This document shows positions 4,532 through 51,100 of a stretch of 64,000 nt of DNA, one piece after another. Positions within the stretch are counted from its first letter, which is position 1. Each line of letters starts with the position of its first letter. Origin of the DNA: a virus (lineage: Duplodnaviria; Caudoviricetes); the IMG/VR virus record IMGVR_UViG_3300002597_000001, positions 44,779-108,778 of that record, one strand, 5' to 3'. The translations under genes were made by a program, and so were the position numbers. The notes under the pieces are model-generated. The model made no database searches. It worked only from the letters and a program-made list of their open reading frames with translations, and was not told the DNA's origin.

Positions 4532-4888
4532 TTGAATGATATCAAAGTTACGCTCCCGCCAATCAATAGATGGAAAGAAAATATCATCTATGCCGTGGAT
4601 TTTGACGGGACGCTTTGTTCAAAGATGTGGCCTATCATCGGGAGCCCAAATCTGGCATTGATTTCCGATTTAATTCTAGCCAGAGAGCTTGGAGATAAGG
4701 TGATTCTCTGGACCATGCGGGAGGGTCAATTGCTGGAAGAAGCAGTTGAATGGTGCATGGAATACGGGCTGGAATTCGACGCCGTGAACGACAACCTCCA
4801 GGAACAGCAGGAACTATACGGTAACAACCCAAGAAAGATTTATGCGGATGTATACATAGATGATCATAACGCATGGATGGAGTGGTAA
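4532..4888 (+). CDS. HAD-superfamily hydrolase
   Basis: AVDFDGTL, LWTMR and RKIYADVYIDD motifs; probable TTG start. Confidence 0.8.
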   Translation: MNDIKVTLPPINRWKENIIYAVDFDGTLCSKMWPIIGSPNLALISDLILARELGDKVILWTMREGQLLEEAVEWCMEYGLEFDAVNDNLQEQQELYGNNPRKIYADVYIDDHNAWMEW

Positions 4889-4903: not shown

Positions 4904-5308
4904 TTGGTGGGTGGTAATTTGAGGACGAATCTTCTCGAAGAAACAAAAGCAACGCTGGCCGAGTACAACCTTGATCTCAAGGATGTTAGCTGGGTTGGAA
5001 TTGGTTTGTACCGCATCCCGTGGGAGGTATTTCGTCGGGTTGCTGACCAGTTCTATGACAATGGTTATGGCGGTGCTGAGGTGAACGAAAACCTAATCGT
5101 GTGCGGCGATGATTGGTGGCTTGAACGCCATGAATATGACGGATCTGAATGGTGGGAGTATAAGACGATGCCAGTGAAACCCGAGTTAGAGCTGGAACGC
5201 CCAGAACTACATATATTCCCAAGCTTCCACCGTAGATTCTATTTTAATTACGATTCTCCGAATGCCGAGATGGAGTTCAAATCCATCTGCTCAGATGAAG
5301 ATGAATAA
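4904..5308 (+). CDS. hypothetical phage protein
   Basis: WWLERHEYDGSEWW motif; operon context. Confidence 0.65.
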   Translation: MVGGNLRTNLLEETKATLAEYNLDLKDVSWVGIGLYRIPWEVFRRVADQFYDNGYGGAEVNENLIVCGDDWWLERHEYDGSEWWEYKTMPVKPELELERPELHIFPSFHRRFYFNYDSPNAEMEFKSICSDEDE

Positions 5309-5554: not shown

Positions 5555-7409
5555 ATGGAAGTTAATATCCGGTTGAATAAGAATTTTACAACGCAGTACA
5601 ACAAACTACAGGCTGAGTTCGGTACAGAGATAGCGGCGATTAATGGGTTTGATGACGGGCAGCTTTCCTATACGGATTTCATAGATAATTTTGCGGCTAA
5701 GGATGTTGTTGCAGATGCGAGCATTGACGGGAATTCCAATGTATCACATAAGGACATCGTCACGCTGGAACGAGAAATGTCCAAGCCTCACGAAAAGCTG
5801 ATTGCGTTCAGTAAAATCTATCAGGAGATCCAGGACAAATACGGATTCAAAGCCGCTAATGAGTGGTTGCGACTGGAGTGGATCGGCGCTCTGTATCTGC
5901 ATGATGCCAGTACCAGCACCCTCAAGAGCTATTGTTTTGCCTATGATTTGAAGGATCTTGCTGAGAAGGGAATGTACTTCGAAGAAGGTCGGAACGCAAA
6001 ACCGGCACAGCACTTGATCACATTTGTGGATTTTGTGAAAGAATTTGTCAGCTTCACATCCAACCGTACAAGCGGAGCCGTGGGACTCCCGAATCTCATT
6101 CCCTATATGTTCTACTTCTGGAAGAAGGATATTACAGAAGGATATATGGGACTGACGGAAGAGATGGGGGAGCGGTACGCAAAAAGCAATATCCAGAGAT
6201 TCATCTATGCAGTCAATCAAAGCCACTGCCGCGATGGTTCGCAATCGGCCTTTACGAATACTTCGATTTTCGACCATCCTTATTTTGAAGCGCTGTTCGG
6301 CGGGGCAGTATTTCCAGACGGATCATTCATGATCGACTACGAGGAGGAGATCATTGAATTCCAAAAATGGTATCTGGAAGAAATGGCGGCAATCCATTCG
6401 GAAAACATGTTCACGTTCCCTGTTAATTCTATCAGTCTTCTCCGGCAGAACGGGAAATTTGTAGATGAGGAATTTGCCAAATATGCTGTGCGACACAATA
6501 TGGAATGGTCTGATTCAAATCTCTTTGTGGACAGTTCTGTTAACAGTTTGAGTAACTGCTGTAGACTCAAGTCCAATATCCAAGACCTCGGCTATTTCAA
6601 CAGTATTGGCGGAACGGCGCTCAAGGTCGGTTCTGTAAAGGTGAATACTGTGAATCTCGCAAGAATCGCGCTGGATTGCACAACTGAAGAGGAATATCTG
6701 GACGAGCTTTATCACAGGACGACTGTCTGCCTCCGCGCTCTGGATGTGGTCAGGAGCATCATCCGCAGTAATGTCAGGAAGGGGCTCCTCCCGAATTTCT
6801 CCAAGGGCCTCATTGATTTCGAGCACCTTTATAATACAGTGGGCTTCCTGGGTATCTATGAGACAATGAAGAAATTCGGATATACCAAGGTCGATCCGTT
6901 TGGAAATACATACTACACGCCGCTGGCGTCTACTTTCGGTCAGAAGATTTTCCAGACGATGCGGAAAGCAGCAGACGATTTTATCGCAGCAGATCCCACG
7001 GTGGATTACCAAATCAACACCGAACAGATCCCAGGCGAATCAGCGGCTGCGAAGCTGATGAAAAAGGACAAGTTCTTCTATCCTGACGCCAACATCTACG
7101 ATTTGCCGTTGTATGGAAACCAGTTCATTCCGCTGGGGATCCAGACCACGTTACAGGAACGTGTGCGGATCGCCGCCGAGTTCGACGGCTACTGCAACGG
7201 AGGCTCGATCCTCCATGCCAATATCGACGCGCCGTTTGACAGTTTTGAGAAGGCGTGGAAGATGGTAAACTACATCGCTGATGCCGGTGTAACGTATTTC
7301 GCATTCAATACCAAAATTCAGTCGTGCGAAGACAACCATGCGTTCTACGGAGATACTTGCCCAGTGTGCGGGAAACCTGTAGATGCGGAGTTCACGAGGA
7401 TCGTAGGGT
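5555..7409 (+). CDS. nrdD: anaerobic ribonucleotide reductase NrdD, exon 1 (spliced product 650 aa, no ATP cone)
   Basis: SNCCRL, NLARIA, EQIPGES, CxxH/CPVC Zn site; ends at TRIVG. Confidence 0.93.
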
Positions 7410-8534
7410 AAAGTGGTGTACTGCCCAATGCTTTGGCAACAAGGTAACGCGATCTAAAACAAGAAACCTCGAATATGCGGGGACCCCCTTAGAGACTTCA
7501 ATACTAACCCACAGGGAAACCGAGTGGCGGCGGAACTAATCACTCCGGGACAGTAATAAGTTGAAGTATTGGGAAATCCGCAGGCATAGCTGAAATGCGA
7601 TGGCCCCAACGACTACCAAGAGGCGTCCGATCACGGACGAAGGTATAGTCTATTCCGATTAGAAATAAGGAGAAATACATATGACTAATAGAGAAGATTT
7701 CACAGGACAGATATTTGGCAAAAGAAAAGTAATTCGTAATTATTGTGTTGAAGAAGATTGGATTAATATTGGAAAGCCGATACCGAATGATATCCGCAAG
7801 TACAGATTGTCAGAATGCCTGAACTGCGGCGCAAAAGTTCCAGTGCTTATGAAAAACCTCTTTGAGCGCCCTCCAAAAAGGTGTTGTTTTTGCTCCAATA
7901 TTCGGAATACCAGTACGACAATTCAGTCTTCCACAAATACTTGGACATTGTATGACGATTATGCGGCTGTCAATGTTACTTATAAAGATGGCGTCGTGAC
8001 CGGATACGTCAGTAAAGAAGATTATGAGGATGTTTCAAATCGTATGTGGCGGGTAAGCAAAAAGAAGAACAAATATTATTTGCTCAGTGGCTCCAAATAC
8101 AAAGACGATGTCATCTATCTGCACAGATTTATCCTACGAGATAAGGAAATCCTGTCTGGGCACGAAGTTGATCACATTGATGGGAATTCGCTGAATAACC
8201 GCCGAGAAAATCTTCGGGTTGTAACGAGGCTTGAGAACATACAAAATGTGTCTCAACGAATCGATAACCAGATTGGAATCAGAGGTATTGCGCCGGATGG
8301 GCGTGGTAAATACACGGTGGATTTTTCTCATAATAATAAACGGTATTACTTTAAGCCATGGGACACATTGGCCGAAGCCGTCTGCTGCCGAGGTGTTTTG
8401 GAAGATTACTTCGGTCTTGAAATGATTAGGCGAAATCCAAAAGCGCAGGCAGTTGACGTTCTGCCTCTATGTCAGGTAAGTGAAATCAAACAATATGTAT
8501 TATCCAAAATATCGTGAAAGCGACGGTATTAAAG
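7410..8534 (+). mobile_element. group I intron in nrdD carrying an HNH endonuclease
   Basis: Exon ends in U7409 with P1 GGGU/GCCC (U.G pair); core AATCCGCAG, CAACGACTA, AAGGTATAGTCT; omega-G 8534; splicing restores RIVG-F-YTRVSTW. Confidence 0.92.
7681..8517 (+). CDS. intron-encoded HNH homing endonuclease (AP2-like C-terminus)
   Basis: YLHRFI..EVDHIDGNSLNNRRENLR..T..EN; AAGGAG RBS; located 3' of the intron core. Confidence 0.88.
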   Translation: MTNREDFTGQIFGKRKVIRNYCVEEDWINIGKPIPNDIRKYRLSECLNCGAKVPVLMKNLFERPPKRCCFCSNIRNTSTTIQSSTNTWTLYDDYAAVNVTYKDGVVTGYVSKEDYEDVSNRMWRVSKKKNKYYLLSGSKYKDDVIYLHRFILRDKEILSGHEVDHIDGNSLNNRRENLRVVTRLENIQNVSQRIDNQIGIRGIAPDGRGKYTVDFSHNNKRYYFKPWDTLAEAVCCRGVLEDYFGLEMIRRNPKAQAVDVLPLCQVSEIKQYVLSKIS

Positions 8535-14005: not shown

Positions 14006-15949
14006 ATGCCTACGGATAAGGCGAAATTGAGAGAGTTGATCTTGAGGGCCAAGGAGAAGCTTGGAGACCAGAATGCTGAGATTATTGCCGAGTCCTACGG
14101 CGTCGCTCAGTGGAATCCAAATAAACTGAATGGGTTGTGCCCATTCCATAATGAATCACATCCCAGTTTTAGTTATAACAGGAAAGACTATTCCGCTCAT
14201 TGTTTCAGCTGTGGAGAGTCTACGGATGTTATTCGCGCCCTGATGGATGGTCAAAACCTGAGTTTCGTTGACGCGGCTAAAAAGCTATTTGAGATGGCTG
14301 AGATGGATGTGCTGTGGGACAAGGTTCATGTGGATAGGAAATATAGGTACCCACACGAGGAGCAGGAACCAGCAGAGGATGTCATTGATTATTTGGGTTG
14401 GCGAAAGATCTCCGAAGATACAATACGAAAATGTGGGATTCAGTCCGATGGCAAAGGCAATATCGCGTTTCCTTATCGTGATGAAAATAACCAACTTCTC
14501 ACCATGAAATACCGTCCTGCACGGAAGGTTAATAAGGATAACGGAGAACAAAAAAGCTGGGTGCAGAAAGACACAGACACAACTCCGATCCTATTCAATA
14601 TGAATAGGTGCAATCCAGATTATCCTCTCGTGATCTGCGAAGGGGAAATTGATTGCCTATCCGTGTATGAAGCAGGGTGGAAAAATGTTGTAAGTATCCC
14701 CTTTGGGGCGCAATCCATGACGTTTATAGACCGTTGTTATGATTGGCTGGATATGTACAAAGAGATTATTCTCGCCGGAGACATGGATGAAGCTGGTCAG
14801 AAATTCAACAAAGAAGCGACGACCAGACTTGGAGCATGGCGTTGTAAGACCATGGAAATCCCAGATAAGTATATGGGTCACATCGCGCAGCTCGACAGAG
14901 ATATCAAGGATATCAATGAGGTGCTTTTCTATTTTGGGAAAGATGCCGTCATGGATATGATCCATAATGCTCGTGAGACACCTATTGCGTCAGTTGTAGA
15001 CATCATGGATGTCAAACCAGTGGATTTGCAAGAGCTTGATGGAGTTACTACTGGCATCAAACCGTTAGATAAGATGCTTGGCAAACTTTATTATGGGACC
15101 GTCACTTTGGTCTCTGGAAAGGCCGCATCCGGTAAATCTAGTTTAGTCAGCACAATTCTCTGTAATGCTATGGACGCAGGAATAAACTCGTGGATTTATT
15201 CTGGAGAATTGAATGAACAAACAAACCGTAACTGGATTGATTACATATTTGCTGGCCCGAGAAATGTGAGTCAAAGCAACGCTCCTGACGGCTCTGATTA
15301 TTATCAGATTAACCCAGGTGTGTCAAATAAAATAAGCAAAGCCTATAGGGGTCGATGCTTTATCTATAAAGATGGTCAAACATCTGACATTGATTCGCTG
15401 CTCAAATCTGCGGAGGATGTGGTTCGGAGATATGATTGTAAGGTTCTTGTATTAGACAATCTTATGACAATCATGGATTCTAGCGATGAGGAACTGGAAT
15501 CTCAGAAAAACATCATGGTCAAAACCGTAGCTTTTGCTACAAAATATAACGTGGCGATTCTATTGGTGTGCCATCTCCGTAAAGTCGCAAAGGGACAACA
15601 GATTACGCTCGATGACATTAGCGGAACTGCGAAATTGGGCAATCTGTGCCACCGAAATATCACGTTGGCAAGGATCACGGATGAAGAAAAAAGCGGCGAA
15701 GCTGAATATTCTCATACACCCAAGGAGTTACTTAAATATGATGTTCAGATTTCGTGTTCAAAAGACCGCATGAGAGGTAAGGTGGGCTCTATAGGGGTCT
15801 GGTACGATACTTGGAGCCGGAGGTTCTATAGCAGCCCAGAAGAATATGATCGAGTATATTCGTGGGATAAGAAGAAATATGATGAACCACTGGATTGGCC
15901 ACACGCCGACACCAATGATGTGTTGGGGCCAGAGCAAGGGGGTGCTTGA
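14006..15949 (+). CDS. primase-helicase (CHC2 Zn finger + Toprim + SF4 helicase)
   Basis: CPFH...CFSC, ICEGEIDCLS, GDMDEAG, Walker A GKAASGKS, LDNL, HLRK. Confidence 0.92.
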   Translation: MPTDKAKLRELILRAKEKLGDQNAEIIAESYGVAQWNPNKLNGLCPFHNESHPSFSYNRKDYSAHCFSCGESTDVIRALMDGQNLSFVDAAKKLFEMAEMDVLWDKVHVDRKYRYPHEEQEPAEDVIDYLGWRKISEDTIRKCGIQSDGKGNIAFPYRDENNQLLTMKYRPARKVNKDNGEQKSWVQKDTDTTPILFNMNRCNPDYPLVICEGEIDCLSVYEAGWKNVVSIPFGAQSMTFIDRCYDWLDMYKEIILAGDMDEAGQKFNKEATTRLGAWRCKTMEIPDKYMGHIAQLDRDIKDINEVLFYFGKDAVMDMIHNARETPIASVVDIMDVKPVDLQELDGVTTGIKPLDKMLGKLYYGTVTLVSGKAASGKSSLVSTILCNAMDAGINSWIYSGELNEQTNRNWIDYIFAGPRNVSQSNAPDGSDYYQINPGVSNKISKAYRGRCFIYKDGQTSDIDSLLKSAEDVVRRYDCKVLVLDNLMTIMDSSDEELESQKNIMVKTVAFATKYNVAILLVCHLRKVAKGQQITLDDISGTAKLGNLCHRNITLARITDEEKSGEAEYSHTPKELLKYDVQISCSKDRMRGKVGSIGVWYDTWSRRFYSSPEEYDRVYSWDKKKYDEPLDWPHADTNDVLGPEQGGA

Positions 15950-18900
15950 TGCCTAATATCGTACAACTTCACAACCATACAGACATCAGTCTTCTCGACT
16001 CTGCTACTAAAACTTCCGACTACATAGCAAAGTGTCTCGAATATGGACAGACCGCTCTCGCCATCACTAATCATGGATACCTCAAGAACTGGGTCGAGAA
16101 CAAAATCCTCTGTGACAAAGCTGGAATCAAGTACATCCACGGTGTGGAAACGTACATCACGAAGACATTGCTTCAGCCTGTGGACGGCGAGATGAAGAAA
16201 GTCCGTGACAATATGCACTGTATTCTTCTTGCCAAGAACTATGACGGAGTATTGGAACTCAATCAGCTTATCAGCACAGCTTGCGATGATGATCACTTTT
16301 ATTTCGCGCCGAGAATCAGCGGGCAGGAATTCATCAATCTCTCTGATAACATAATCGCTTTGTCAGCCTGTCTGGCTGGCCCTCTCAACAAGCTGGACCC
16401 AGATGACGAAATGTTCCTGCCTATCCTAAAGCGCATGGACTATTTGGAGATCCAGCCTCACAACTGCCAGTCTCAGGCAGATTACAATATATGGCTTGCG
16501 AGTCTCGCTCAGAAGTATCACAAGCCCCTAGTTGCCACAACAGATTCCCACAGCTCTGATTACTATAAGAATGAGTGCCGGGACATTCTGATGCTATATA
16601 AAGGTCAGCACTATGAGTCCGAAGACGAGTTGGATCTCGTATTCAAAAGCTATGACCAGATGGTAGAAGCCTTCCGTGTGCAAGATGCACTCCCAGAGAA
16701 ACTGTGGATGGAGGCTATTGAGAACACCAATGATATTGCGGATTCAGTGGAGGACTTCGGACTGGACTTCTCTATGAAATACCCCATCTTATACGGGAGT
16801 CCGGAAGCAGATGAGGAGGCGTATCGCAAAAACGTCTGGTCCGGCCTTGATGATAAGCTGAGAAAGGGCATCATCCCCAAAGAAGAGGAAGCCCAGTATA
16901 GAGAGGACGCCGCTTACGAACTGGAGGTGTTCTCAAAAATAGGAATGGCAGGCTTCATGCAGGCCGAATCTGAAATCATCTCCTGGTGTAAGGAACAGGG
17001 AATGCCCATTGGTCCGTCCCGTGGATCTGTGGCCGGAAGCCGCTGTGCCTATCTGACAGACATCATCGATCTGGACCCCGTAAGGTGGAACACAAACTTC
17101 GCTCGTTTTGCGAATTCCGACCGTATCGTGGCTGGTGATATCGATGTGGATTGTCGTGAAAAAGACCGCCCTAAAATCTTTCAACACATCATTGAAAAAT
17201 TCGGGCGCGACAAAGTGGCGCGAGTCAGTTCATTTGGGACCCTTCAAGACAAGGGGACAATTAAGTTGATTGTCGGAGCGTTGGGAAAGCGTTGGAAAAT
17301 AGAACACGAGGCTGAAGATGAGGGCAAATATACGCTCAAGTATGCAGAGTCTATAATAAAAGAATACGAGGCAGACCCTGATAGTTGCCGCACAGCGCAC
17401 CCGGATATATTCTATTACTTCGACGGTTTAGTCGGTACATATATATCACAGTCATTCCACCCGGCAGGCGTTATCATCTCACCAATCACGTTACCAGATC
17501 ACTATGGGACATTCATCAAAGATGGAGAAGTGGTTCTGAATCTGGATATGCTCTGGAGCCACGAGATCGAATTGGTGAAATTCGACATGCTTGTGCTCCG
17601 AAACATCGATATCATCTTCGATACTTGTAAATTGGCGGGGATCCCATACCCAAAGAGCCATGAGGTCAACTGGGATGACGAAAAGGTCTGGGAGAACATG
17701 ATTCAAAGCCCGGTTGGGGTATTCCAGATGGAGGGAGATTACGCATTCCAGTGCCTGAAGAAGTATAAGCCACACTCCATCTATGATATGTCCCTTGTAA
17801 CCGCGAGTATCAGACCGTCAGGTGCGTCATACAGGGATCAGGTCATGGAGCACAAGATGAACAAGAACCCAACGCCGCTTATTGATGAGATTTTTAAGGA
17901 CAGCCTTGGATACTGCGTCTATCAGGAGCAGGTTATTGCGTTCCTTCAACAGGCTTGTGGGTTCCCAGGTTCCAAAGCCGACACAGTGCGTCGTGCAATT
18001 GCAGATAAAGATCCTGCTAAATTGGAGTCCATGATGCAGGATGTGATTGATGGATACTGTGAGCTGTCGGACAAACCTAGAGCAGAAGCTGAGGAAGAGG
18101 TCAAGGATTTCGTACAAGTCCTGCGTGATGCATCTGGATACTCATTTGGTTATAACCATAGCGTCGGCTATAGCATGATTGGCTATTTGTGTACGATGCT
18201 TCGGACATATTATCCATATGAATTCATCGTGGCATTGCTCAATAATGCAGCCAATGAATCAGATGTGGCAAATGCCAAATCGCTTGCCTCTCAGCTCCAT
18301 ATCAAAATCCTTCCACCGAAGTACGGCGTCTCCTCAGACACATATGTGTTCAACAAGGACACCAAAGAAATTGCAAAAGGGGCCGCAGACATCAAATATG
18401 TCGGCAAAAAGGTTGCGCTTGCCTTATATAAGATGGCCCACGATGGAAAGCAACGGGCATTCGTGGATGTGATTCTGGATTCCACAAATGGCATCCGCGA
18501 TATGAACAAACGTCGCATGGACGCTCTTATTTCAGTCGGCTATTTCTCAGACTTTGGTAATATTTCCGAGCTATCAAGAATCTACAGCATGGTGGAGGAA
18601 TTCAAATTTGGCGAGACCAAGTCCTACAAATGCGACAAAGTTGGCGAACGCCTAAAGTTCATCGAAAAGTACGCCAGCAACCTAAAAAAGGACGGCACCC
18701 CCGGAAGCTCATACAAGTTTGAGTCCAAAGATGCCGTCATAGCATTCCTGCGAGAGGCTGAGCAAGTGATTCTTTCGCTCGGAATCCCTGATGTTTCCTT
18801 CAAAGTGAAGGCCGAGAATCAGCAGGAGTATCTCGGATATATAGATCTGGTCACTGGCCGCGAGGAAGACCGCCGTAAACTCTACATCATGGACTACTAT

Positions 18901-19116
18901 GAGATTATGAACAAGTGGGGCGGCAAGGGCGTGTGGAAGGTGCGCATTAAAACCAGATCGATTGGCTCCGGCAAGGAAGCCTCACTAAGTTTGTCTCCAG
19001 TATTGGTCCAGAGAAATCCTATAGAGAAGGGGAGTGTCATTGAGGTCAAAGAAGAATGGCTCTCGCTCGACAAGGGTCAGTACTGGGTTCTATATAAATA
19101 CAAAGTTATAGAGTAG
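15946..19116 (+). CDS. dnaE: DNA polymerase III alpha subunit (family C)
   Basis: PHP motifs HNHT, TNHG, TTDSH; RGSVAGS, GDIDVD, HPAG, KFD.L, YQEQ, YSFGYNH. Confidence 0.95.
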   Translation: MMPNIVQLHNHTDISLLDSATKTSDYIAKCLEYGQTALAITNHGYLKNWVENKILCDKAGIKYIHGVETYITKTLLQPVDGEMKKVRDNMHCILLAKNYDGVLELNQLISTACDDDHFYFAPRISGQEFINLSDNIIALSACLAGPLNKLDPDDEMFLPILKRMDYLEIQPHNCQSQADYNIWLASLAQKYHKPLVATTDSHSSDYYKNECRDILMLYKGQHYESEDELDLVFKSYDQMVEAFRVQDALPEKLWMEAIENTNDIADSVEDFGLDFSMKYPILYGSPEADEEAYRKNVWSGLDDKLRKGIIPKEEEAQYREDAAYELEVFSKIGMAGFMQAESEIISWCKEQGMPIGPSRGSVAGSRCAYLTDIIDLDPVRWNTNFARFANSDRIVAGDIDVDCREKDRPKIFQHIIEKFGRDKVARVSSFGTLQDKGTIKLIVGALGKRWKIEHEAEDEGKYTLKYAESIIKEYEADPDSCRTAHPDIFYYFDGLVGTYISQSFHPAGVIISPITLPDHYGTFIKDGEVVLNLDMLWSHEIELVKFDMLVLRNIDIIFDTCKLAGIPYPKSHEVNWDDEKVWENMIQSPVGVFQMEGDYAFQCLKKYKPHSIYDMSLVTASIRPSGASYRDQVMEHKMNKNPTPLIDEIFKDSLGYCVYQEQVIAFLQQACGFPGSKADTVRRAIADKDPAKLESMMQDVIDGYCELSDKPRAEAEEEVKDFVQVLRDASGYSFGYNHSVGYSMIGYLCTMLRTYYPYEFIVALLNNAANESDVANAKSLASQLHIKILPPKYGVSSDTYVFNKDTKEIAKGAADIKYVGKKVALALYKMAHDGKQRAFVDVILDSTNGIRDMNKRRMDALISVGYFSDFGNISELSRIYSMVEEFKFGETKSYKCDKVGERLKFIEKYASNLKKDGTPGSSYKFESKDAVIAFLREAEQVILSLGIPDVSFKVKAENQQEYLGYIDLVTGREEDRRKLYIMDYYEIMNKWGGKGVWKVRIKTRSIGSGKEASLSLSPVLVQRNPIEKGSVIEVKEEWLSLDKGQYWVLYKYKVIE

Positions 19117-19121
19117 GAGGA

Positions 19122-19424
19122 ATGCTTACGAATAAGTTCGAACTAATTCAAACAGCTGCGGTCAGAGCCAACTTCACCCAGGCCGCGATGAAGAAGGCGC
19201 TCGAAGCAATCATGTCTACCATTGTGGACCATGTCTCTATTGGGGAGGATGTCAGGATTAATGACTTCGGCACCTTTTACCGTGATCACCGCAATGCACG
19301 TTTGGGCCGCAATCCAAGCACCAAAGAAGCGGTGCCAATCCCAGAACGCAATCTCCCGGCATTTAAGCCCGGGAAAGAGTTCATCCAAATCACCGCCGAG
19401 ATGTCTAAGCCGAGGGAACGATGA
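19122..19424 (+). CDS. hup: HU-family DNA-binding protein
   Basis: FGTF...R.GRNP.T...IP....PAFKPGK. Confidence 0.9.
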   Translation: MLTNKFELIQTAAVRANFTQAAMKKALEAIMSTIVDHVSIGEDVRINDFGTFYRDHRNARLGRNPSTKEAVPIPERNLPAFKPGKEFIQITAEMSKPRER

Positions 19425-19663
19425 TAGCATTTGAAGATTATTGTGTGGGGTGCCCACGAGAGATTGGGTGTTTAGGCCCATCCTGCCCGAACAAGAATGT
19501 CCCAGTTATTTACTGTGATAAATGTGGCTGTTATGCCGATTATAGATACGAGGGCAGTGACTACTGTGAAGACTGTTTGAATAATGTCTTACAGGAAGAG
19601 TTCAGTAATTTACTTATATCAGAGAAACTGGAAGCCATCGGCGGCGACTGGGATTACATATAG
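19421..19663 (+). CDS. Cys-rich hypothetical protein
   Basis: CVGC..C....C, CDKC, CEDC. Confidence 0.6.
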   Translation: MIAFEDYCVGCPREIGCLGPSCPNKNVPVIYCDKCGCYADYRYEGSDYCEDCLNNVLQEEFSNLLISEKLEAIGGDWDYI

Positions 19664-19673
19664 GAGGAATAAA

Positions 19674-20315
19674 ATGGCGAAGATTGAGAACGTAGAAGTA
19701 AACGGACTGGCGTCATCTATCTACAGAAGCGGATATCCTATGATGGATAGAGCGCCAACCAAAGACGAGTTTGATGAGGCCGTAGATCAGATTCAGCAGT
19801 GCATCGAGAGCGGCGATTGTGACAACCCACACATCAAAAGAGCCATTAAGCTGGCCACGGCGAAGGGCGGCGGACACGATCAGTTCTTGACAGGCATCAC
19901 GGTGAACTTTGACATGACCTTCAGTAATAAAGCTTGGGTTGAAGCAGAACGATACACATTTTTGAACTTCATTTCCAGCTTTAGCACAATGCATAGAATT
20001 GCAAAAATGAATATTGCTGACTGTTGTAATAGCTATGCATCGTATAATGCCATTGAGGAGGCAGAATACTGGCAGCACAAATACGAACAGATTGCGAATG
20101 AGCCATCAGCAACGCATGAATTAAAACTAGAAGCATACCGCATGCTCCTGTACAACTTGCCGGCGGCTTTCGAAGTTACTGCTGGCATGACAACGAATTA
20201 TCGTTGTTTGAAAAACATCTATGCACAGCGGCGCGACCACAGATTGCCCGACTGGCATGTGTTCTGCGACTGGGTAGAGACCCTCCCTTTGTCGCAGCTA
20301 ATTACGGGAAAATAA
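19674..20315 (+). CDS. ThyX/Thy1-like phage protein
   Basis: GHDQFL, W.EAERY, STMH, TNYRCLKNIY.QR..HRL.DW; the canonical ThyX RHR motif is degenerate. Confidence 0.55.
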   Translation: MAKIENVEVNGLASSIYRSGYPMMDRAPTKDEFDEAVDQIQQCIESGDCDNPHIKRAIKLATAKGGGHDQFLTGITVNFDMTFSNKAWVEAERYTFLNFISSFSTMHRIAKMNIADCCNSYASYNAIEEAEYWQHKYEQIANEPSATHELKLEAYRMLLYNLPAAFEVTAGMTTNYRCLKNIYAQRRDHRLPDWHVFCDWVETLPLSQLITGK

Positions 20316-20359
20316 ATCTCATTCAACCTATTGACAAATCTAGAATTATGTGCTATGAT
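20316..20359 (+). promoter_or_regulatory. sigma-A-type promoter of the tRNA/ncRNA operon
   Basis: TTGACA(20331)-17 bp-TATGAT(20354) with TGn; upstream motif is 18/20 identical to 1942-1961. Confidence 0.85.
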
Positions 20360-20368
20360 AATGGCGCA

Positions 20369-20453
20369 GGCGGTGAGTTGTTCTTTTTCGGTAGGAAATC
20401 TCATGTGCCCTAGATGAAGAATGGTGCGGGGCGGCGCACAATAATATCCGCCA
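20369..20453 (+). ncRNA. unidentified structured RNA A (three-way junction)
   Basis: GGCGG/CCGCC closing stem with UGAG/CUCA and UGUGC/GCACA arms; first element after the promoter. Confidence 0.45.
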
Positions 20454-20457
20454 ACAC

Positions 20458-20533
20458 GCTGGCATAGCTCAGTTAGTAGAGCAATTCCCCTGTAAGGAAT
20501 GGGTCGTCGGGGCAGAGCCGACTGCCAGCTCCA
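20458..20533 (+). tRNA. tRNA-Thr(UGU), non-canonical C33 and T-loop
   Basis: GCUGGCA/UGCCAGC acceptor, GCUC/GAGC D stem, AUUCC-CCUGUAA-GGAAU, GUCGG-GGCAGAG-CCGAC, encoded CCA. Confidence 0.8.
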
Positions 20534-20824
20534 ACTCCGATTCCAGCGGAGTGATCTGTAGCCAATTCTTACGAAAGGAGAATAAAGCGCCATCTTCACA
20601 TCAGGATTTTATTAACGGGCGTTAGCCCAAATTACACCGCCCACTACAGTCTGAGGACTGGTATGACACCGACAGATGCGTCTGTCAGGACTGGCACAGG
20701 TGCGCTAAACCAAGCACATAAATAAGTTGATGTTTCCCGTCTGCTTATGGCCAAGTTTACAGGAACCAGTGTCGTGAAAGCTCGCCCTTGGTGTCGGAGG
20801 GAATGAGAAAGGCAAAATCTACAT

Positions 20825-20901
20825 AGCGCAGTCGCCAAATTGGTTAAGGCATCGGATTTTGGTTCCGATTATTGTGGGTTCGAATCCTACCTGCGCTGCC
20901 A
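20825..20901 (+). tRNA. tRNA-Gln(UUG)
   Basis: AGCGCAG/CUGCGCU acceptor, UCGGA-UUUUGGU-UCCGA, UUCGAAU T loop, CCA. Confidence 0.92.
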
Positions 20902-20997
20902 GAGAGGTAGGGAATCTGCCGATATGCGCAGAAGCGCTATGCGATATTGGCGGAGAAAATGGTGATGCATGAATACCTATGAAGCCACCTCTCACCA
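20902..20997 (+). ncRNA. unidentified CCA-terminated RNA E
   Basis: Starts 1 nt after the tRNA-Gln CCA; 7-bp GAGAGGU/ACCUCUC + A + CCA; internal 11-bp helix. Confidence 0.6.
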
Positions 20998-21428
20998 TGG
21001 CCCAACACACCTATGCGTAGCACAGTAAGTGGCCCATGTTGGGTAATTTGAAAGCGGGGAAATCCATCCGTTTGTAAAAACCAGTCGCTGGAGATGGACA
21101 CCTTTAGACTGGGTTTAGTTCGAGGTTGTTGTGTTAGGGGTGTAGTGCGCGGACGGTTCTGTCCAAAACCAACTGCGCCGCCCCGAATTTTGGCCTTGTG
21201 GTCTGCCTCCGTCGTGTGTACGGCGAAAAGACCGCCCCGGATCGCTACCGGGAAATAGCGGCAGCGAGCTAGATAGAGGCTTGGTATCTCGCTGGGGTGT
21301 AAAGAAGCCAGAAGCCGGAGAGACGGGACGGTATGGTGAGGTGATATCCTATTCCTCACACAAAATCACCCTATTCTCAGCTAGGGGTGTGGCAGTCTGG
21401 CGTAGCTGTCGAGAGAAAGTACGCCCCA
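20998..21428 (+). ncRNA. densely structured, pseudoknotted non-coding region (one large or several RNAs)
   Basis: Successive hairpins and pseudoknots, no sense ORF, located between tRNAs. Confidence 0.5.
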
Positions 21429-21431
21429 TAT

Positions 21432-21519
21432 GCTGACGTATCCTAATTGGCAAGGAGCCGGTCTTGAAAATCGGTGATACCGAAAGGTACTGTGGGTTCG
21501 AGTCCTACCGTCAGCGCCA
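21432..21519 (+). tRNA. tRNA-Ser(UGA)
   Basis: GCUGACG/CGUCAGC, CCGGU-CUUGAAA-AUCGG, long variable arm UACC-GAAA-GGUA, G73, CCA. Confidence 0.9.
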
Positions 21520-21625
21520 CGTCCCTTTAGTTTATGGTTTCAATTCGGACGAGATTGAATCTGAACCATCAAAGTGCCGAAAGGGTGAGGGCACCTGCGG
21601 AGTGATGGCCCTAGTCTCCGCGCCA
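21520..21625 (+). ncRNA. unidentified CCA-terminated RNA K
   Basis: Three hairpins; the last is GCGGAG/CUCCGC + G + CCA. Confidence 0.5.
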
Positions 21626-21628
21626 TAT

Positions 21629-21704
21629 CCGGGCATAGCGCAGCTGGTAGCGCTCCTGATTTGGGTTCAGGAGGTCGGGCGTTCGAGTCGCCCTGCTCGG
21701 ACCA
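21629..21704 (+). tRNA. tRNA-Pro(UGG)
   Basis: CCGGGCA/UGCUCGG, CCUGA-UUUGGGU-UCAGG, UUCGAGU, ACCA. Confidence 0.92.
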
Positions 21705-21812
21705 GCGGAGCGGCTACTCCACACAGTCGTACTCAGCGGATAGCATACGATGCCGAGATCGCGATGGTAAATCGTATGGTTCTGATTGTGGGATATGGGC
21801 CGCTCCGCCCCA
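21705..21812 (+). ncRNA. unidentified CCA-terminated rod-like RNA L
   Basis: Starts 1 nt after the tRNA-Pro CCA; perfect 10-bp terminal stem + C + CCA; inner 8-bp helix. Confidence 0.62.
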
Positions 21813-21852: not shown

Positions 21853-22047
21853 TTGCAACCAGAGATTCCGCTGTGGAAAAAGGTCACGCTCTCGTTCGAG
21901 GAGGCATCACTTTATACCGGGATAGGCCAGAATAAATTACGCGCCTTATGCAGTAACAATCCATCGTTAATGCTTCGGAATGGGGCACATTCTCGAATCA
22001 AACGAACTGCCTTAGAGCGATACATAGAAGAACATAATGAAATTTAG
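21853..22047 (+). CDS. xis: Tn916-type excisionase
   Basis: IPLWKK..LS.EEA..YTGIG.NKLR; upstream of int. Confidence 0.85.
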   Translation: MQPEIPLWKKVTLSFEEASLYTGIGQNKLRALCSNNPSLMLRNGAHSRIKRTALERYIEEHNEI

Positions 22048-22129: not shown

Positions 22130-23347
22130 ATGTCGAAGCGAAAGGATTGTAAGGGTCGGAACCTAAGAACAGGGGAGGGCCAAAGAGCAAACGGTCTGTA
22201 TTACTATCAGGCCACAGACAAATATGGCAACCGGACAACGCTGACCAGTTGGAGGCTTGTCCCGACAGATCCATTACCAAAGGGTAAGCGAGACTGTATA
22301 CCGCTTAGAGAACAGGAAGAAGAATTGACCAAACAGATAAAGTCAAAGCTAGATCTTTCTGTCCGGTGTACTGTGATGGAGGCCGCTCTGAAGTATAAAG
22401 AATCCAGAATTGGCCTGAAACCACAGTCTATGATTGGTATCAATACGTTTAATAAGGTGCTTGGAAAGTATAAGCTTTCTCACATGCAGATAAACGACGT
22501 AGAGGTGAAAGACGTAAAGTGGTTTTGTCGAGCTCTATACAAAGACAATTACTCTGTTACGACAATCATGAATTACAAAGGGCGTCTGTCAAGCGTGTTT
22601 GTCTTCGCGGGTGAAGAACTGCATTTACTCACTAAGAATCCAACAGAGTTCAAGCTGAACAGCGTCATAAAAGAGACGCCAAATAAGAGGGGTTCGCTGT
22701 CCGAACAAGACAAGGAAGAGTTCATCCGTTTCATCAAGAGCGATAATGTATCGCGCAAACATTTTGATGAAATTAATCTGTTGCTTGGAACCGGGCTTCG
22801 GATCTCAGAGTTTGTAGGACTCACAGAAGACAATGTGGATTTCGAGAACCACTGCATTGTGATTGACCATCAGCTCCAAAATTTAACACCGAACCGAGAG
22901 TGGCTCACACCAAAGTCGGAAGCTGGAAACCGAGTGGTGTTTATCAGCGATGATGTTGAGGCGTCTGCGAGGCGACTGATTGAGGCAGCTGGCCCAAAAC
23001 GATCTGGGTTTACGTGTGGAAACACATCAAAGTTTTTCATCCTTGACAGAAATGGAAACCCAAGGAAAGATATTGGTGTTAGGGATATGCTAAGGTCAAT
23101 CGTCAATCGATACCATCGAAAAACAGGAAAAGAGCTTCCCCATATTATTCCACACATGCTCCGACACACATATTGCACAGATCAGGCCCAGTCTGGAATG
23201 GACATGATGGCATTGCAATATATGATGGGGCATACGGACATGTCTACGACAAGTCGTTACCTGCACACTCAACAAAATCACGCGGCGGCAGAGGCAGCAA
23301 GATTGTATCGAAAGCATGCCAACGCGGCCTCAAAAGACGCTGTCTGA
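22130..23347 (+). CDS. int: tyrosine integrase, Tn916-like N-terminal arm-binding domain
   Basis: RKD.KGR.L.TGE.QR; catalytic TGLRISE, K, HMLRHT, MGH, Y. Confidence 0.93.
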   Translation: MSKRKDCKGRNLRTGEGQRANGLYYYQATDKYGNRTTLTSWRLVPTDPLPKGKRDCIPLREQEEELTKQIKSKLDLSVRCTVMEAALKYKESRIGLKPQSMIGINTFNKVLGKYKLSHMQINDVEVKDVKWFCRALYKDNYSVTTIMNYKGRLSSVFVFAGEELHLLTKNPTEFKLNSVIKETPNKRGSLSEQDKEEFIRFIKSDNVSRKHFDEINLLLGTGLRISEFVGLTEDNVDFENHCIVIDHQLQNLTPNREWLTPKSEAGNRVVFISDDVEASARRLIEAAGPKRSGFTCGNTSKFFILDRNGNPRKDIGVRDMLRSIVNRYHRKTGKELPHIIPHMLRHTYCTDQAQSGMDMMALQYMMGHTDMSTTSRYLHTQQNHAAAEAARLYRKHANAASKDAV

Positions 23348-29337: not shown

Positions 29338-30687
29338 TCACCCCCGAACATAATTGGTATTCTCATCAAAAACGGCTGTCAGGTCGCTTTGTAACACCCA
29401 ACTGCCACTTATCCTTTTGTATACAGCTGTCGCCGAAGTCCAGCCGCCGTTAGCCTTAAAATAGATCACATCCGACGACCCGCTACTGCCAATGGTGACA
29501 GCAATCGTGGCATCTCCGTCAACTGTATAGGTGTATGTGTAGTACTCCACACCACTGCTGGGAGTTGAGTAGGTCACATAAACCGTCGCACCGTTGATCG
29601 CACCGCCATAGTAGCCCAAACGGCACTGGAGTTTCATGCTCGCCAGCTGTGCCACAGTCGGTAACGTCTCGCACTCAAGCGTCTGGGTGCTGTTGCTCGT
29701 GCCGACGTCCTTGAAGTTCAGTTCCTCTGTCAGCTCCGCGCTTCCGCTGATCAGCATGGCGCACATATACTCTGACGAGTTGGATGTGGATTCAGCGTGT
29801 CCGCTGACCTCGCACCACACCCGCTCAATTGTGGCGTTAGACGGCACTGTGATGCCCATGTCATATGTGAAGACCGCTATCGTCCCAGACCCGCCAGAGT
29901 AGTAGTTCGATGTGGTCTGCGTTGCGTCACTGCCGTTCCCGACAAGGCCGCTGAAATAGGTTGCACCAGATCCGTTGAAACTGCCCGACACGAGCGTGTA
30001 TTCGCCCAGATCCGCATCAAGGGTACCACCGCCAGCATAATGCGCCACGAGGGAACTCGTGATATCCACGCCGTCCTTTGTCGCTGTGACGGTATCGCTC
30101 GTGTTCGTTGGCGTGATGGTCAGGGTGTACTCTGTGTCCTCATAGGTACTGTACGCACCGCTGGGGCTGATTGTACCGTTACCTGTGAGCGTCGATGTGA
30201 CTGTAGCTGCAACAGGCATCGTATAATCGACAAGGATCTCAGCACCGTAGATATAGACATGCGCCGTTGTGTTACGGCTGGACCGCCTACAGTTTATGCG
30301 GATACCGACGTCAGAACCGGCATTTACCACATCCTCCCACGAATAATTGCAAGTGAATGTATGTGTAGTGACTGTTGACGAGATGGAATCTGAACTACCC
30401 ATTGATGTACTCGTTCCATCATACAGATACATCGCCTGTGAATAACCGCCACTATAGTTACACTTGACCTTAACAGTAAACGAATTAATTGTTGCGCCAC
30501 TCGGAATATCATCGAAGTTGAACCCTCTGATGTACGCATAGTATGAAGTTGTCGATGTCCTTGAGTTGGTAATTGTCGCATACGTTGTGCTGTCGGTATT
30601 CGCATACATATTGGACGCGTTTGAAACGGACAGATATGAGCTATTTGACAGATAGTATGTACTCGGTATGAGTCTTATTGTTGCCAT
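29338..30687 (-). CDS. virion/tail-associated beta-rich protein with duplicated domain
   Basis: S/T/Y-rich; two copies of (I/V)PS.ATI....V.V...I.GA...V.Y. Confidence 0.7.
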   Translation of the reverse strand: MATIRLIPSTYYLSNSSYLSVSNASNMYANTDSTTYATITNSRTSTTSYYAYIRGFNFDDIPSGATINSFTVKVKCNYSGGYSQAMYLYDGTSTSMGSSDSISSTVTTHTFTCNYSWEDVVNAGSDVGIRINCRRSSRNTTAHVYIYGAEILVDYTMPVAATVTSTLTGNGTISPSGAYSTYEDTEYTLTITPTNTSDTVTATKDGVDITSSLVAHYAGGGTLDADLGEYTLVSGSFNGSGATYFSGLVGNGSDATQTTSNYYSGGSGTIAVFTYDMGITVPSNATIERVWCEVSGHAESTSNSSEYMCAMLISGSAELTEELNFKDVGTSNSTQTLECETLPTVAQLASMKLQCRLGYYGGAINGATVYVTYSTPSSGVEYYTYTYTVDGDATIAVTIGSSGSSDVIYFKANGGWTSATAVYKRISGSWVLQSDLTAVFDENTNYVRG

Positions 30688-44518: not shown

Positions 44519-44851
44519 TTATTGCATTCTTTTAATTGATTTCAAAAATTTGTTCATCTTATCGCGATACGCATCCCGTTCTTGCTTCATATTTGCCAGT
44601 GCCTGCTTATACTGAGCGCATAACTTTTCGGCCTCAGACAGTGCATCTGCGTAGGCGATCTTGGCCTTTTCTACCTCGGCCTTCGCCGCCTCCAGTTCCG
44701 CTTCGCGCTGTTTCAACGCATTGCGCTCACTGGCAATATCTCTTTCAAGACTGGCCATCTCAGAATTCAATGATTTAATAGTTTCCGCTTGGCGCTGAAT
44801 CGTTTGCTTCTGGCGCTCAAGCCGTCTGTCTCGTATCATAATTACCCCCAA
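44519..44851 (-). CDS. coiled-coil hypothetical protein
   Basis: Heptad-rich ORF between TMP and Dit. Confidence 0.6.
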   Translation of the reverse strand: MGVIMIRDRRLERQKQTIQRQAETIKSLNSEMASLERDIASERNALKQREAELEAAKAEVEKAKIAYADALSEAEKLCAQYKQALANMKQERDAYRDKMNKFLKSIKRMQ

Positions 44852-47592: not shown

Positions 47593-48156
47593 TGAAATCA
47601 CCTCAGTGTAATAATAACATATGTATAAAGAAATGACAAGTGATCTCAACAATAATTTACATTTTATTAATAACATATGTAGAGCCATAGGACCCACTTT
47701 AATCGTATTAGAGGTTGTCGTTCACATAGGGTCGCTAGTCCTATGCAGTTCTCTTATGAACTTCTTACACTTTCATGTAAGCACAGACTATATCTTATCC
47801 CTCGGCATTATCCGTTAGGGCCTATCCACTTCGGACACCAATAGCTTGTGCCCTACTTCCCTCAAGAGGAATAGTCGTTGAACCTTGCCTTTCAGCCTTG
47901 GCTGCTGATTGCCCATTATATAGCGTTTAGGATTTAACCATGCGCCATCTATTCAATTTTTTCTGCTTTCGCAACATTCACGAACACACCATTTGAGGCG
48001 TCACGTTGTAGTTTGAATAGCTTTAGGGGTTTCCAGCAATTCAAATAGTATTGGGCAGGTGTAACCAAACCTGCCGCTACATACACGTTTCCGTATATGC
48101 TGACTTGCTGATTGCCTTACTCATGACTAAAGTCACGAGTGTGCGGCAATCGGTCA

Positions 48157-51100
48157 ATCAAACCGCTCATTGAGTGCAAGCTCATAGTCTGTATAGAGGT
48201 CGTCGAGCAACTGCTTCTGATCGCTGATATAGCGGTCATACTGAGTTTCCTCAAGGTCAGACCGTGCATCATCTAGGCTAGACCGAAGTTTTTGGACATT
48301 GAGCCGCCCCTCTTCTGATGTGTCACCGCTATAGGCAGACAACTGTTTCTCAAGAGACGCGATATTCTTGGACTGCTCTTCAATCTTGGCTTGATAATCG
48401 TGGAGCGACTTAGCGCTACTGAGGCTGTCGTTGTATTGATCTATCAGCGTTTTGAGAGCATCAAGCTGTTTGTCAATGCCATTATGAACAAGGTCGATGA
48501 TGGCATCGCGCTCATCCTCTGCGGCTGAGATAGACTCCTGCTGAAGCTTGAGCAGTTCTTCGCGCCGCTTTAGAATCTCGGTGTTATACGGATCATCCGC
48601 CAGTTGCTTATTGACTTTGAGCATCTCGTCGCGGTACTGATCCGCCTGTGCCATGAGGATGTTATAATTCTGGCCGCGCAGACCCAAGGTAGCCATACCT
48701 GCATCTGTGAGTTTTCCGCCGTCATCAAAGAGCTCGTCGCGGTCGAGGAGGTCAATCAGGAAGTTGGACTCCTGCGTGAGCTGGGAGATTCTGTCCTGTA
48801 CAAAGTCAAAATAGCCCCACTCAACCTCACGCATGGTCTTGGCATATTCGAGAAGGCTTGTGTTGGCTTCATCAATAGCTTCTTTGACACCATTTATCTC
48901 GGCCTGCATTGAATACCACGCCGAACTATACATCTCTATCTCGCCGCTATTCATAGCCTCAGACATGGCGTCTACCATATCGTCAAGCTGTTTATTCAAG
49001 ATAGAGATGTTTTGCTTTTCGACATTAGATAGCGCGGTATAATACTCCGTGCTGATGAGATACCCCTTCTGCTCAAGCTGCTCGATTCCGTTCTGATATG
49101 TGTTTGTGAGGTGTTCATACAGTTTGAGCTGGTTGTTGTACTCCTCTTGTACATTGTCAAAGTTGTCCTGATATAGTTGCGCCATTGACTCGTGGAGCTC
49201 ATCTACAGCATCGCTGGCATCAAGGGCTTTGTCATAAAGGTCCTTGTATTGCTTTATCTTTTCGTTAAGCTCTTTGTCAGTAATGGTTTCAAGGTTGATC
49301 TTCCCCTCGCGTACCAGTGCTTTATAGGACTCATCTAGGCTGATGGTCTCGGCGGCATGCATATACTCATCATACGCCTGCTGTTGATAATCTATCTTAT
49401 CCGCAACTGTGGCAATTTCTTCGCCAAGAGCACTTGTGCGGGTTGTGAGAGACTTAAACGTAGACCCAGCAATACGAGCAAGGCTTTTGATTCTGCGCTC
49501 GATACGATCAAGCAGGACTTCAATCCAATCGAGATCTTCTGCGAAATCATCGGCAGAAGAAGACGCCTTAGATGAGGCTGTTTTGTTACCGTTGTAGGAA
49601 GAGGAAGATTTGTAGGAGTTAGAAGAGCTCGAAGAAGACGAGCTAGACCCTAGGGAAGTAGTTGATGATGTCTTCCTGCGTCTCTTACCGCCAGACCCAG
49701 AATCAAATGCGGTTCCGGTCGCCAACGCATTTCCGCGATTCTTACCATACTTAATTCGTCCGTATTTAAATATCTGCTCAGTTTGTTCGGCATTGAAAAT
49801 AATGTCGCCCTTCTTGTAATTAAAGAAGCCAGCACCATTTTCACCGATGGTATAATAATGGCCATCACGTACAAGGAGCTCAGTTCCTAATTCTCCGCCA
49901 AGAGCAACACCACTGTTTTTGGTTCCCCAGTAGCCATGAGCCATTGCAGTGCCTCTGGCGTGTGCGGTTCCAGAGAATCGTGCAGTACCATATGCACCAC
50001 CACGCCCAGTATCACCACGAGCAACATAATTCACATAGCGTGTGATGCTAGAAAAATATGTTGGGAGATTACTAGTATTCGGCGTATATGTTACAGTACG
50101 TGTTCCGCCATACGTTACAGCATTAACAGCGTCGATAAGCCCCGTTTCTGGAGTATACGTTGTTGTCCTGTTACCACCATCTGATTTTGCATCTTCCGCG
50201 TCTGTGTCTTCGGTATCAGCAAAGTAAGTAACGAACACAGACGGATCCATACTTTGCAAGCTTGCCAGCAGAGAATCAGCAGACGTTGTATCCAAATTAA
50301 GGTCGGCAGGAATAACCGCTTCCATGCTTTGGATTTGCGCAAGAAGCGCATCCGCATCCGCCTGTGCCTGCCCATCATCAATGCCAAGCTTTGCCGTTGC
50401 ATCTGCCGCCGCAAAGCTTTGCAACAAGCCAAGGAGCATATTCAGATCTCCCTCGGCAGTTGAGGAATTCACATCAACAGACATCAGCGTCGGGTACTCA
50501 AGACTCAGCTTCTCGGCCTCAAGCGCACCAAGAACTTGGACGGCCTCTTCAGCCCCAGCAAGTTCCATGTTGATAGTACCATCACTATTTCGCATACCAT
50601 CAAGGATGGATTGCACCTCTGTTATTTGGCTGTTAATACTGTCAAGGTCTGTCGAGTCAATATCAAATGATATATCTGTGAGACCGAGGCGTGTGAGCTG
50701 GTCGGCAGATTCTTGAGCTGTTTCCTTGAAACTCTGGAGTGCCGAAAGTGGAGTGTCAATATTGACATTCATCCCAGCATCTTTCATGGCTTGCTCAAGG
50801 AGTTGGATGGATTCAACAGACATGCCGGTTAGTTCGGATACACGTTGTAAATCGGACGCAGTCCAATCAAATGCATACGACCCATCGTCACCCACTTGCA
50901 CCAGACTGTCATCCAATGTGTCTACAGCGTCGAGGAAATTGTAAAGACCATCCGAGGAAAGCTTTTCGCTGTCTTCATCATATTGGAAGAAATCCATAAT
51001 GCTGAAATCAGTACCGGCAATCTTTTGTGTCAGCCTATCGAAGTCTGCATAGACATCACTGGTACGAGCGCTGGCCGCAAGCATTAGGTCAAGATACTCC

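Follow-up and report, generated by a model that had tools for sequence, protein, structure and literature searches.

A candidate tRNA-punctuated operon of non-tRNA RNAs in a temperate rumen phage

The window analysed here is a stretch of 64,000 nucleotides (nt) of a virus (Duplodnaviria; Caudoviricetes), positions 44,779 to 108,778 of the IMG/VR record IMGVR_UViG_3300002597_000001, and this work concerns a region within it in which four tRNA genes are interleaved with RNAs that are not tRNAs. Judged from its sequence, this region of a temperate rumen phage of 109 kb is probably an RNA operon that is driven by one promoter and punctuated by tRNAs, the transcript of which would be cut by host RNase P. 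The evidence lies in the ends of two short RNAs, RNA1 and RNA3, and in the conservation of RNA3 and of a large RNA in related phages.

Organisation of the operon

The operon comprises the following elements, where L001 and L088 are two related phage loci described below.

20331-20359, + strand: operon promoter, TTGACA-17-TATGAT with TG before the second hexamer
20424-20452, + strand: leader hairpin GUGCG/CGCAC, just upstream of the first tRNA
20458-20533, + strand: aberrant tRNA-Thr(UGU)-like gene with encoded CCA (Rfam tRNA model at 20458-20530, 48.9 bits)
20534-20824, + strand: variable spacer, with a hairpin CUCCG-AUUCCAG-CGGAG (20535-20551) directly after the Thr-like tRNA
20825-20901, + strand: tRNA-Gln(UUG) with encoded CCA (ARAGORN)
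20902-20997, + strand: RNA1, a 96-nt three-way-junction RNA with a 7-bp closing stem, A and CCA
20998-21359, + strand: conserved core of the large RNA, about 365 nt, ending in the hairpin GUGAGG-UGAUAUCCUAUU-CCUCAC
21360-21428, + strand: lineage-specific extension of the large RNA, without counterpart in L001 or L088
21432-21519, + strand: tRNA-Ser(UGA) with encoded CCA (ARAGORN)
21520-21625, + strand: RNA2, a 5' hairpin domain followed by the 3' hairpin GCGGAG-UGAUGGCCCUAGU-CUCCGC, G and CCA
21629-21704, + strand: tRNA-Pro(UGG) with encoded CCA (ARAGORN)
21705-21812, + strand: RNA3, a 108-nt rod-shaped RNA with a 10-11-bp closing stem, C and CCA

An initial annotation of the window had described a near-consensus promoter ahead of about 1.45 kb of RNA region without a credible open reading frame (ORF), of which some 320 nt would be tRNA. 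The promoter indeed matches at 11 of 12 positions, and the four tRNAs, all of which encode CCA, were measured at about 317 nt in total. No conserved reading frame was found in the RNA region: the frames present are not kept in the relatives and the alignments contain indels of 1 and 2 nt, and protein coding was ruled out on these grounds.

Acceptor-like ends of RNA1 and RNA3

The 5' end of RNA1 is the base right after the CCA of tRNA-Gln. Its closing stem is formed by GAGAGGU (20902-20908) and ACCUCUC (20987-20993), followed by A and by CCA at 20995-20997, i.e. the 7-bp stem, single discriminator base and CCA of a tRNA acceptor end. In the same way, RNA3 starts at the base right after the CCA of tRNA-Pro and is closed by GCGGAGCGGC (21705-21714) and GCCGCUCCGC (21799-21808), with C and CCA (21810-21812) at the 3' end. 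When the operon was shuffled 20,000 times, the number of perfect 7-nt closing stems with NCCA to be expected behind any of the four tRNA ends was 0.001, and that of 10-nt stems 5e-5, which places the two elements about 1000-fold or more beyond chance. Both RNAs are also more stable than their shuffles, with a minimum free energy (MFE) z score of -3.55 for RNA1 and -4.56 for RNA3.

RNA2 starts at the base right after the CCA of tRNA-Ser, and its 3' hairpin (GCGGAG 21597-21602, CUCCGC 21616-21621) is followed by G and CCA (21623-21625). Since its 5' end stays outside the 3' helix, RNA2 is not acceptor-like. The earlier observation that three spacers begin after a tRNA CCA and end in a helix, one base and CCA is therefore correct for all three, while the acceptor-like character attributed to them is kept by RNA1 and RNA3 and lost by RNA2. 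A fourth case, not listed in that annotation, is the segment 20998-21428, which ends in a hairpin (21399-21404/21420-21425) and CCA (21426-21428).

RNA1, RNA2 and RNA3 gave no tRNA match with ARAGORN or with the Rfam tRNA model RF00005 at E up to 10, and no cloverleaf was found in them, in agreement with the reported lack of D, anticodon and TTC arms. The spacers matched no Rfam family at all, even at E up to 10; the check by Rfam and ARAGORN that had been called for thus assigns them to no known family and to no tRNA. A tmRNA was ruled out (none by ARAGORN, no Rfam match), as was SRP/4.5S RNA (no model match). A Y RNA (YrlA) was also rejected, as the 108,778-bp phage genome has no TROVE domain and there is no Rfam match, although a Ro60 might be encoded by the host. 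For RNA3, a phage attachment-site (attP) remnant of a host tRNA was ruled out, since it has no T arm and is present in L088 without an adjoining integrase.

That the elements are tRNA genes in decay, or spacers with an accidental fold, is the least credible of the explanations considered here. The aberrant tRNA-Thr-like gene does indicate that odd tRNAs occur in the operon, and RNA1 is specific to one lineage. Against this stand the absence of a tRNA-model match for RNA1, RNA2 and RNA3, terminal stems far beyond chance, and the conservation of RNA3 with compensatory changes.

Conservation of RNA3 and of the large RNA

The operon is confined to a narrow clade. In L001 (IMG/VR 3300011005_000139; upstream protein 90% identical) and L088 (ERZ919290; 75% identity of the upstream protein) the order is leader, tRNA-Gln, large RNA, tRNA-Pro, RNA3; L001 has a small ORF between the leader and tRNA-Gln, and L088 a spacer and tRNA-Ser between tRNA-Gln and the large RNA. 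Two further loci, L089 and L175, contain the promoter, the leader and the Thr-like tRNA, after which the contigs end. Strain variants of the operon come from DNA contigs of other samples.

RNA3 is 78% identical between the window and L001, 97% between the window and L088 and 78% between L001 and L088, and the 60 nt downstream of it are about 52% identical in each of the three comparisons. The structure used for RNA3 is a three-helix rod of 31 pairs, which differs from the RNAalifold register, the latter being broken at two pairs by L001. In this rod 100% of the cells are paired in the three sequences, and 3 pairs are changed on both sides compared with none in six slid controls. The 3' end of RNA3 reads CCCA in the window, in L088 and in one strain variant, and UUCA in L001.

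The large RNA, which starts 1-3 nt past a tRNA in L001 and L088, shows identities of 69% (window-L001), 73% (window-L088) and 92% (L001-L088). Its RNAalifold structure from the three sequences has 106 pairs with 91.5% of cells paired, and 11 pairs are changed on both sides (0-3 in slid controls; 0/500 shuffles), four of them in the helix 83-92/113-122. The 3' hairpin, with the loop UGAU.NCCUA.U, covaries as well. We regard the compensatory changes in RNA3 and in the large RNA as supportive, not decisive.

For tRNA-Pro the corresponding identities are 75% (window-L001), 73% (window-L088) and 84% (L001-L088). As the identities are unequal from module to module, the modules are conserved but mosaic. 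Neither L001 nor L088 has RNA1, and a strain with about 97% identity to the window lacks it too: there the 3' end of a different tRNA reaches the CCA that ends RNA1 in the window. Strains thus differ right at the CCA that ends RNA1 and right after the CCA of tRNA-Pro, which indicates that modules are swapped at CCA junctions.

It is conceivable, though we think it unlikely, that these elements are processing helpers only, i.e. that they provide a clean RNase P cut for the upstream tRNA or insulation from the message of the downstream excisionase (xis) and integrase (int) genes, the fragments then being degraded without a trans role. The elements sit exactly against the tRNA CCA, and unrelated sequences occupy the same position across phages (RNA1 or a tRNA; RNA3 or another sequence). 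No + strand terminator-like site was found between the promoter and xis (21853), so that a cut would part the tRNAs from the mRNA, and RNA2 and the spacer 20534-20824 have no special stability. However, a plain processing signal would require the terminal helix alone, whereas the interior of RNA3, including the unpaired CUCAGCGGAUAGC, is 78-97% identical, above the adjoining tRNA-Pro (73-84%), and the large RNA keeps long invariant blocks together with compensatory pairs. Because the interior of both RNAs is kept more than a processing signal needs, a further role is suggested for them; with selection acting on both sequence and structure, RNA3 and the large RNA would probably act in trans.

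RNA2 and the encoded CCA

The 3' hairpin of RNA2 aligns with the terminal hairpin of the large RNA of L001, and the stems covary. This suggests that the RNA2 hairpin is a local duplication of the 3' hairpin of the large RNA upon insertion of tRNA-Ser. The CCA at 21428 is followed by UAU and then by tRNA-Ser, and the same CCAUAU leader stands ahead of tRNA-Pro. The hairpin before tRNA-Pro continues with GCCA in the window, AUCA in L001 and ACCCAACA in L088. An encoded CCA appears from these alignments to be favoured, not required. Many bacterial tRNA genes lack an encoded CCA, which is then added after transcription.

The apical region of RNA2 (21548-21566) shares 18 of 19 bases with the + strand at 30377-30395. 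These lie within a gene on the minus strand (29338-30687, 449 aa, without Pfam family), and RNA2 would complement the mRNA of this gene (E 0.005 when one segment is considered). Phages are known to have antisense RNAs that RNase P processes (PMC11143913), and release of antisense regulators of the type of the phage P1 C4 and P4 CI RNAs might be considered. We hold this to be very improbable: the match lies about 300 nt inside the target gene and not at its start, it is marginal given all the segments tested, and in the window no complement of RNA1, RNA3 or the large RNA exceeds 12 nt.

Proposed processing of the transcript

A helix with a 3' RCCA is recognised by bacterial RNase P of both types, A and B. 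The enzyme cleaves hairpin model substrates, those that imitate the acceptor and T stems being cut at the canonical site, and 4.5S RNA, tmRNA and phage C4 RNA are among its natural substrates (PMC11143913). In the processing that we propose, one transcript would be made from the single promoter and host RNase P would cut at the 5' end of each tRNA. Given their tRNA-like terminal helix and 3' N-CCA, RNA1 and RNA3 would be cut at their 5' ends too, and a single cut would finish the CCA end of the upstream tRNA and free the downstream RNA. The four 3' ends made of a helix and CCA would probably resist 3' trimming or allow repair by a CCA-adding enzyme. The predicted products are RNA1 (96 nt), the large RNA (about 365-430 nt), RNA2 (about 106 nt) and RNA3 (108 nt), for which we infer stability and a function beyond processing.

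Several observations weigh against this interpretation. RNA1 has no homologue outside the lineage of this phage. One strain diverges directly after the CCA of tRNA-Pro and is without RNA3; since it has tRNA-Pro all the same, maturation of this tRNA needs no RNA3. UCA replaces CCA at two sites in L001 (RNA3 and the hairpin before tRNA-Pro), and the hairpin of the large RNA in L088 is without an in-register CCA. RNA2 (MFE z 0.05) is not thermodynamically distinct, and the large RNA likewise has an ordinary folding energy (z -1.25). The covariation tests, finally, are weak, as they use three diverged copies and near-identical strain variants, with structures derived from the same sequences.

The release of distinct structured RNAs through tRNA processing, as first suggested for this region, is consequently upheld in part. 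The layout (abutment on CCA, stem with NCCA), the lack of a tRNA or Rfam match and the conservation of RNA3 and the large RNA with compensatory changes fit it; the end of RNA2 and the restriction of RNA1 to one lineage do not. Likewise, the statement that the region outside the tRNAs folds extensively applies, in terms of energy, to RNA1 and RNA3, whereas RNA2, the large RNA and the spacer 20534-20824 (z -0.57) fold no better than shuffles. The comparison of homologues yielded compensatory changes in RNA3 and the large RNA, but the CCA is not strictly kept (UUCA and AUCA in L001).

The ends of RNA1 and RNA3 also bring to mind decoys or substrates, in which case the two RNAs would imitate the 3' end of a tRNA and tie up host enzymes or defence toxins that recognise or modify acceptor stem and CCA, or would be aminoacylated. 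Their acceptor geometry with NCCA and without an anticodon arm is compatible with such a role, and the operon also has the tRNA-Thr-like gene, with a conserved anticodon loop and a degenerate T loop. On the other hand, no toxin, synthetase, CCA-adding enzyme or Ro60 gene was found in the phage genome, and the CCA is not kept in L001. The C at the discriminator position is found in tRNA-His, and the identity features considered were a G at -1 and a G3:U70 pair. No synthetase identity element is evident: RNA3 has the discriminator C but no G at -1, and RNA1 is without G3:U70. We therefore consider this explanation improbable, and cleavage into RNAs with a further role remains the preferred one.

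Leader, tRNA-Thr-like gene and first spacer

The promoter has the same layout in L089 and L175. The leader is kept in five copies of the operon, i.e. in the window, L001 (7146-7178), L088 (6553-6587), L089 (4785-4817) and L175 (5102-5134), and its 5-bp stem covaries in L088 (GUCCG/CGGAC). An H-type pseudoknot is possible, as the loop GGCGG can pair with a CCGCC that lies 8 nt downstream. Rfam gave no match for the leader, which could be an antitermination element or one that resembles a riboswitch. A 12-nt complementarity between the leader and the large RNA (20427-20438 with 21174-21185) was taken as chance (E about 0.3-1.3). In L001 an HNH-type ORF (6572-7114) and a 69-aa membrane ORF (7207-7416) lie around the leader, within the RNA operon region. 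In L175 the promoter and the leader are separated by a zinc-ribbon ORF and by a small membrane ORF like that of L001.

The tRNA-Thr-like gene, which ARAGORN misses, has the anticodon loop CCUGUAA, with C at position 33, and the non-canonical T loop GGCAGAG. The copy in L089 (4823-4898) has the same CCUGUAA loop and the T loop AUCGGGA, so that neither T loop contains the usual UUC; a copy in L175 lies at 5135-5165. The acceptor, anticodon and T stems in L089 all differ from those in the window yet stay paired, which argues that the molecule is under selection. The gene may not work as a normal decoding tRNA.

In the variable spacer, the hairpin behind the Thr-like tRNA is kept in L089 as CUUCG..CGAAG and a 58-nt block is 78% identical in L088. 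In one strain 125 nt of this spacer are skipped.

Phage and gene neighbourhood

The source record is a complete virus of 108,778 bp with direct terminal repeats. The neighbouring genes are listed below.

Upstream, + strand: replication genes, i.e. NrdD, primase-helicase, DNA polymerase III alpha (15946-19116) and HU (19122-19424)
19584-20315: 243-aa protein without family match, directly upstream of the RNA operon
21853-22047: Tn916-type excisionase (xis), downstream of the RNA operon
22130-23347: integrase, downstream of xis

The presence of xis and integrase indicates that the phage is temperate. Past the integrase, lysin and tail-fibre genes lie on the opposite strand. A Firmicute-type host is suggested by the Tn916-type xis/int pair and by the lysin, which is choline-binding.

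The 243-aa protein has no Pfam family and more than 2000 metagenome relatives, with the invariant motifs GGHDQF, EAERY and SSxSxMH. In relatives its gene adjoins nucleotide-metabolism genes (dNMP kinase, NT5C, NrdD), and the protein is probably an uncharacterised nucleotide-metabolism enzyme. Elsewhere in the window, a group I intron (Rfam, 77 bits) was found on the minus strand at 47764-48144, adjoining a gene of 1842 aa (48154-53682).

Searches for further copies

The covariance model of RNA3, R1, found no copies beyond the window, L001 and L088. Six pattern scans of IMG/VR (RNA3, three blocks of the large RNA and the leader) returned only contig 3300011005_000139, and among 80 IMG/VR loci with relatives of the 243-aa protein, nhmmer and model R1 found the RNAs in this contig only. 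ARAGORN detected no tRNAs in the 21 closest other loci with such relatives (L091-L111). A metagenome scan with a 19-mer of the large RNA gave 75 loci, none of them real: 70 represent a single gene of a gut mobile element that has a 21-mer in common by chance, and the other 5 are unrelated chance matches. With a 23-mer of RNA3, a scan of genome contigs gave only five chance matches, all within coding regions. Contigs reached through the flanking proteins P0003, P0011, P0013, P0123, P0125 and P0128 and through the small membrane ORF of L001 contained no new operon copies. A search for RNA sequencing runs that cover the stretch returned none, and the runs compared with it consisted of DNA contigs.

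Comparison with known systems

RNA1 and RNA3 agree with RNase P substrates in having a helix with the 3' RCCA type of end, and their cleavage is predicted; the 11-bp helix of RNA3 with C and CCA has the form of the acceptor/T-stem hairpin substrates (PMC11143913). The operon gives no sequence or model match to the RNase P substrates 4.5S RNA and tmRNA, and in contrast to the C4 antisense RNA of phages P1 and P7 no antisense target was identified for its RNAs.

The locus L002 (2324-2466), whose homologue of the 243-aa protein is 50% identical, has a tRNA-Gln without encoded CCA, followed after 3 nt by an int-alpA RNA (RF02996, 49.6 bits). This is a small three-way junction with an 8-bp closing stem, like RNA1 in topology and position. 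However, RNA1 has no match to the int-alpA model, and the int-alpA copy of L002 is without a CCA end.

ROOL and GOLLD are large structured RNAs that often lie beside tRNAs in prophages, and ROOL was first found in cow rumen data (PMC5737381). The large RNA of the window resembles both in its place beside tRNAs, and ROOL also in its rumen origin. It differs in its length, about 365 nt compared with the ROOL average of 581 nt, and both families were ruled out, as neither Rfam model matches in the window (tested at E up to 10), L001, L002 or L003. More speculatively, RNA1 and RNA3 could be dedicated acceptor-end mimics, set free by tRNA processing, that sequester or divert host factors (CCA-modifying or acceptor-stem-targeting toxins, CCA-adding enzyme, synthetase), with the large RNA forming a new ornate class of the ROOL/GOLLD type. 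The chances of this combination are slight; if true, acceptor-end mimicry would suggest a function for RNAC and RNAD of phage T4.

The closest parallel is the tRNA region of T4, which has the same arrangement (PMC3014915), and the initial proposal of an undescribed system is accordingly not supported. In the T4 record X03016 the CCA of tRNA-Arg is followed after 1 nt by the species 2 RNA, ending GCGC-A-CCA, and after a further 6 nt by the species 1 RNA, with paired ends and a GGGUUCGAAUCCC T arm. As with these two long-known stable RNAs of T4, also named RNAC and RNAD, whose roles are stated as unknown in reviews and a 2022 transcriptome study (PMC3014915, PMC9697503), the operon holds non-tRNA RNAs directly after a tRNA inside a phage tRNA cluster, with a tRNA-like end. 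Unlike T4, it has more modules, a 365-nt RNA and closing stems of 7 and 10-11 bp without a T arm, and the phage is temperate, with a Firmicute-type rumen host. No homology to the T4 species 1 and 2 RNAs was found: nhmmer returned nothing, and BLAST only the shared T-arm consensus and a hairpin. The latter, CCGG-AUCGCUA-CCGG in the large RNA (21237-21254), agrees at 16 of 18 bases with the 5' hairpin of species 2, CCGG-GUCGCUA-CCGG (T4 record 4623-4640); the relatives keep its loop as NUCGCWA, and the match may be due to chance.

Taken together, the sequence comparisons indicate that these RNAs are new, sequence-unrelated members of a T4-like design and not RNAs of an undescribed kind. They would provide an independent example of T4-type non-tRNA RNAs in the tRNA cluster of a Firmicute-type phage, to which they add clean acceptor-end mimicry, a conserved 365-nt RNA and the exchange of modules exactly at CCA junctions. 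This example argues for annotating the spacers of phage tRNA arrays as genes.

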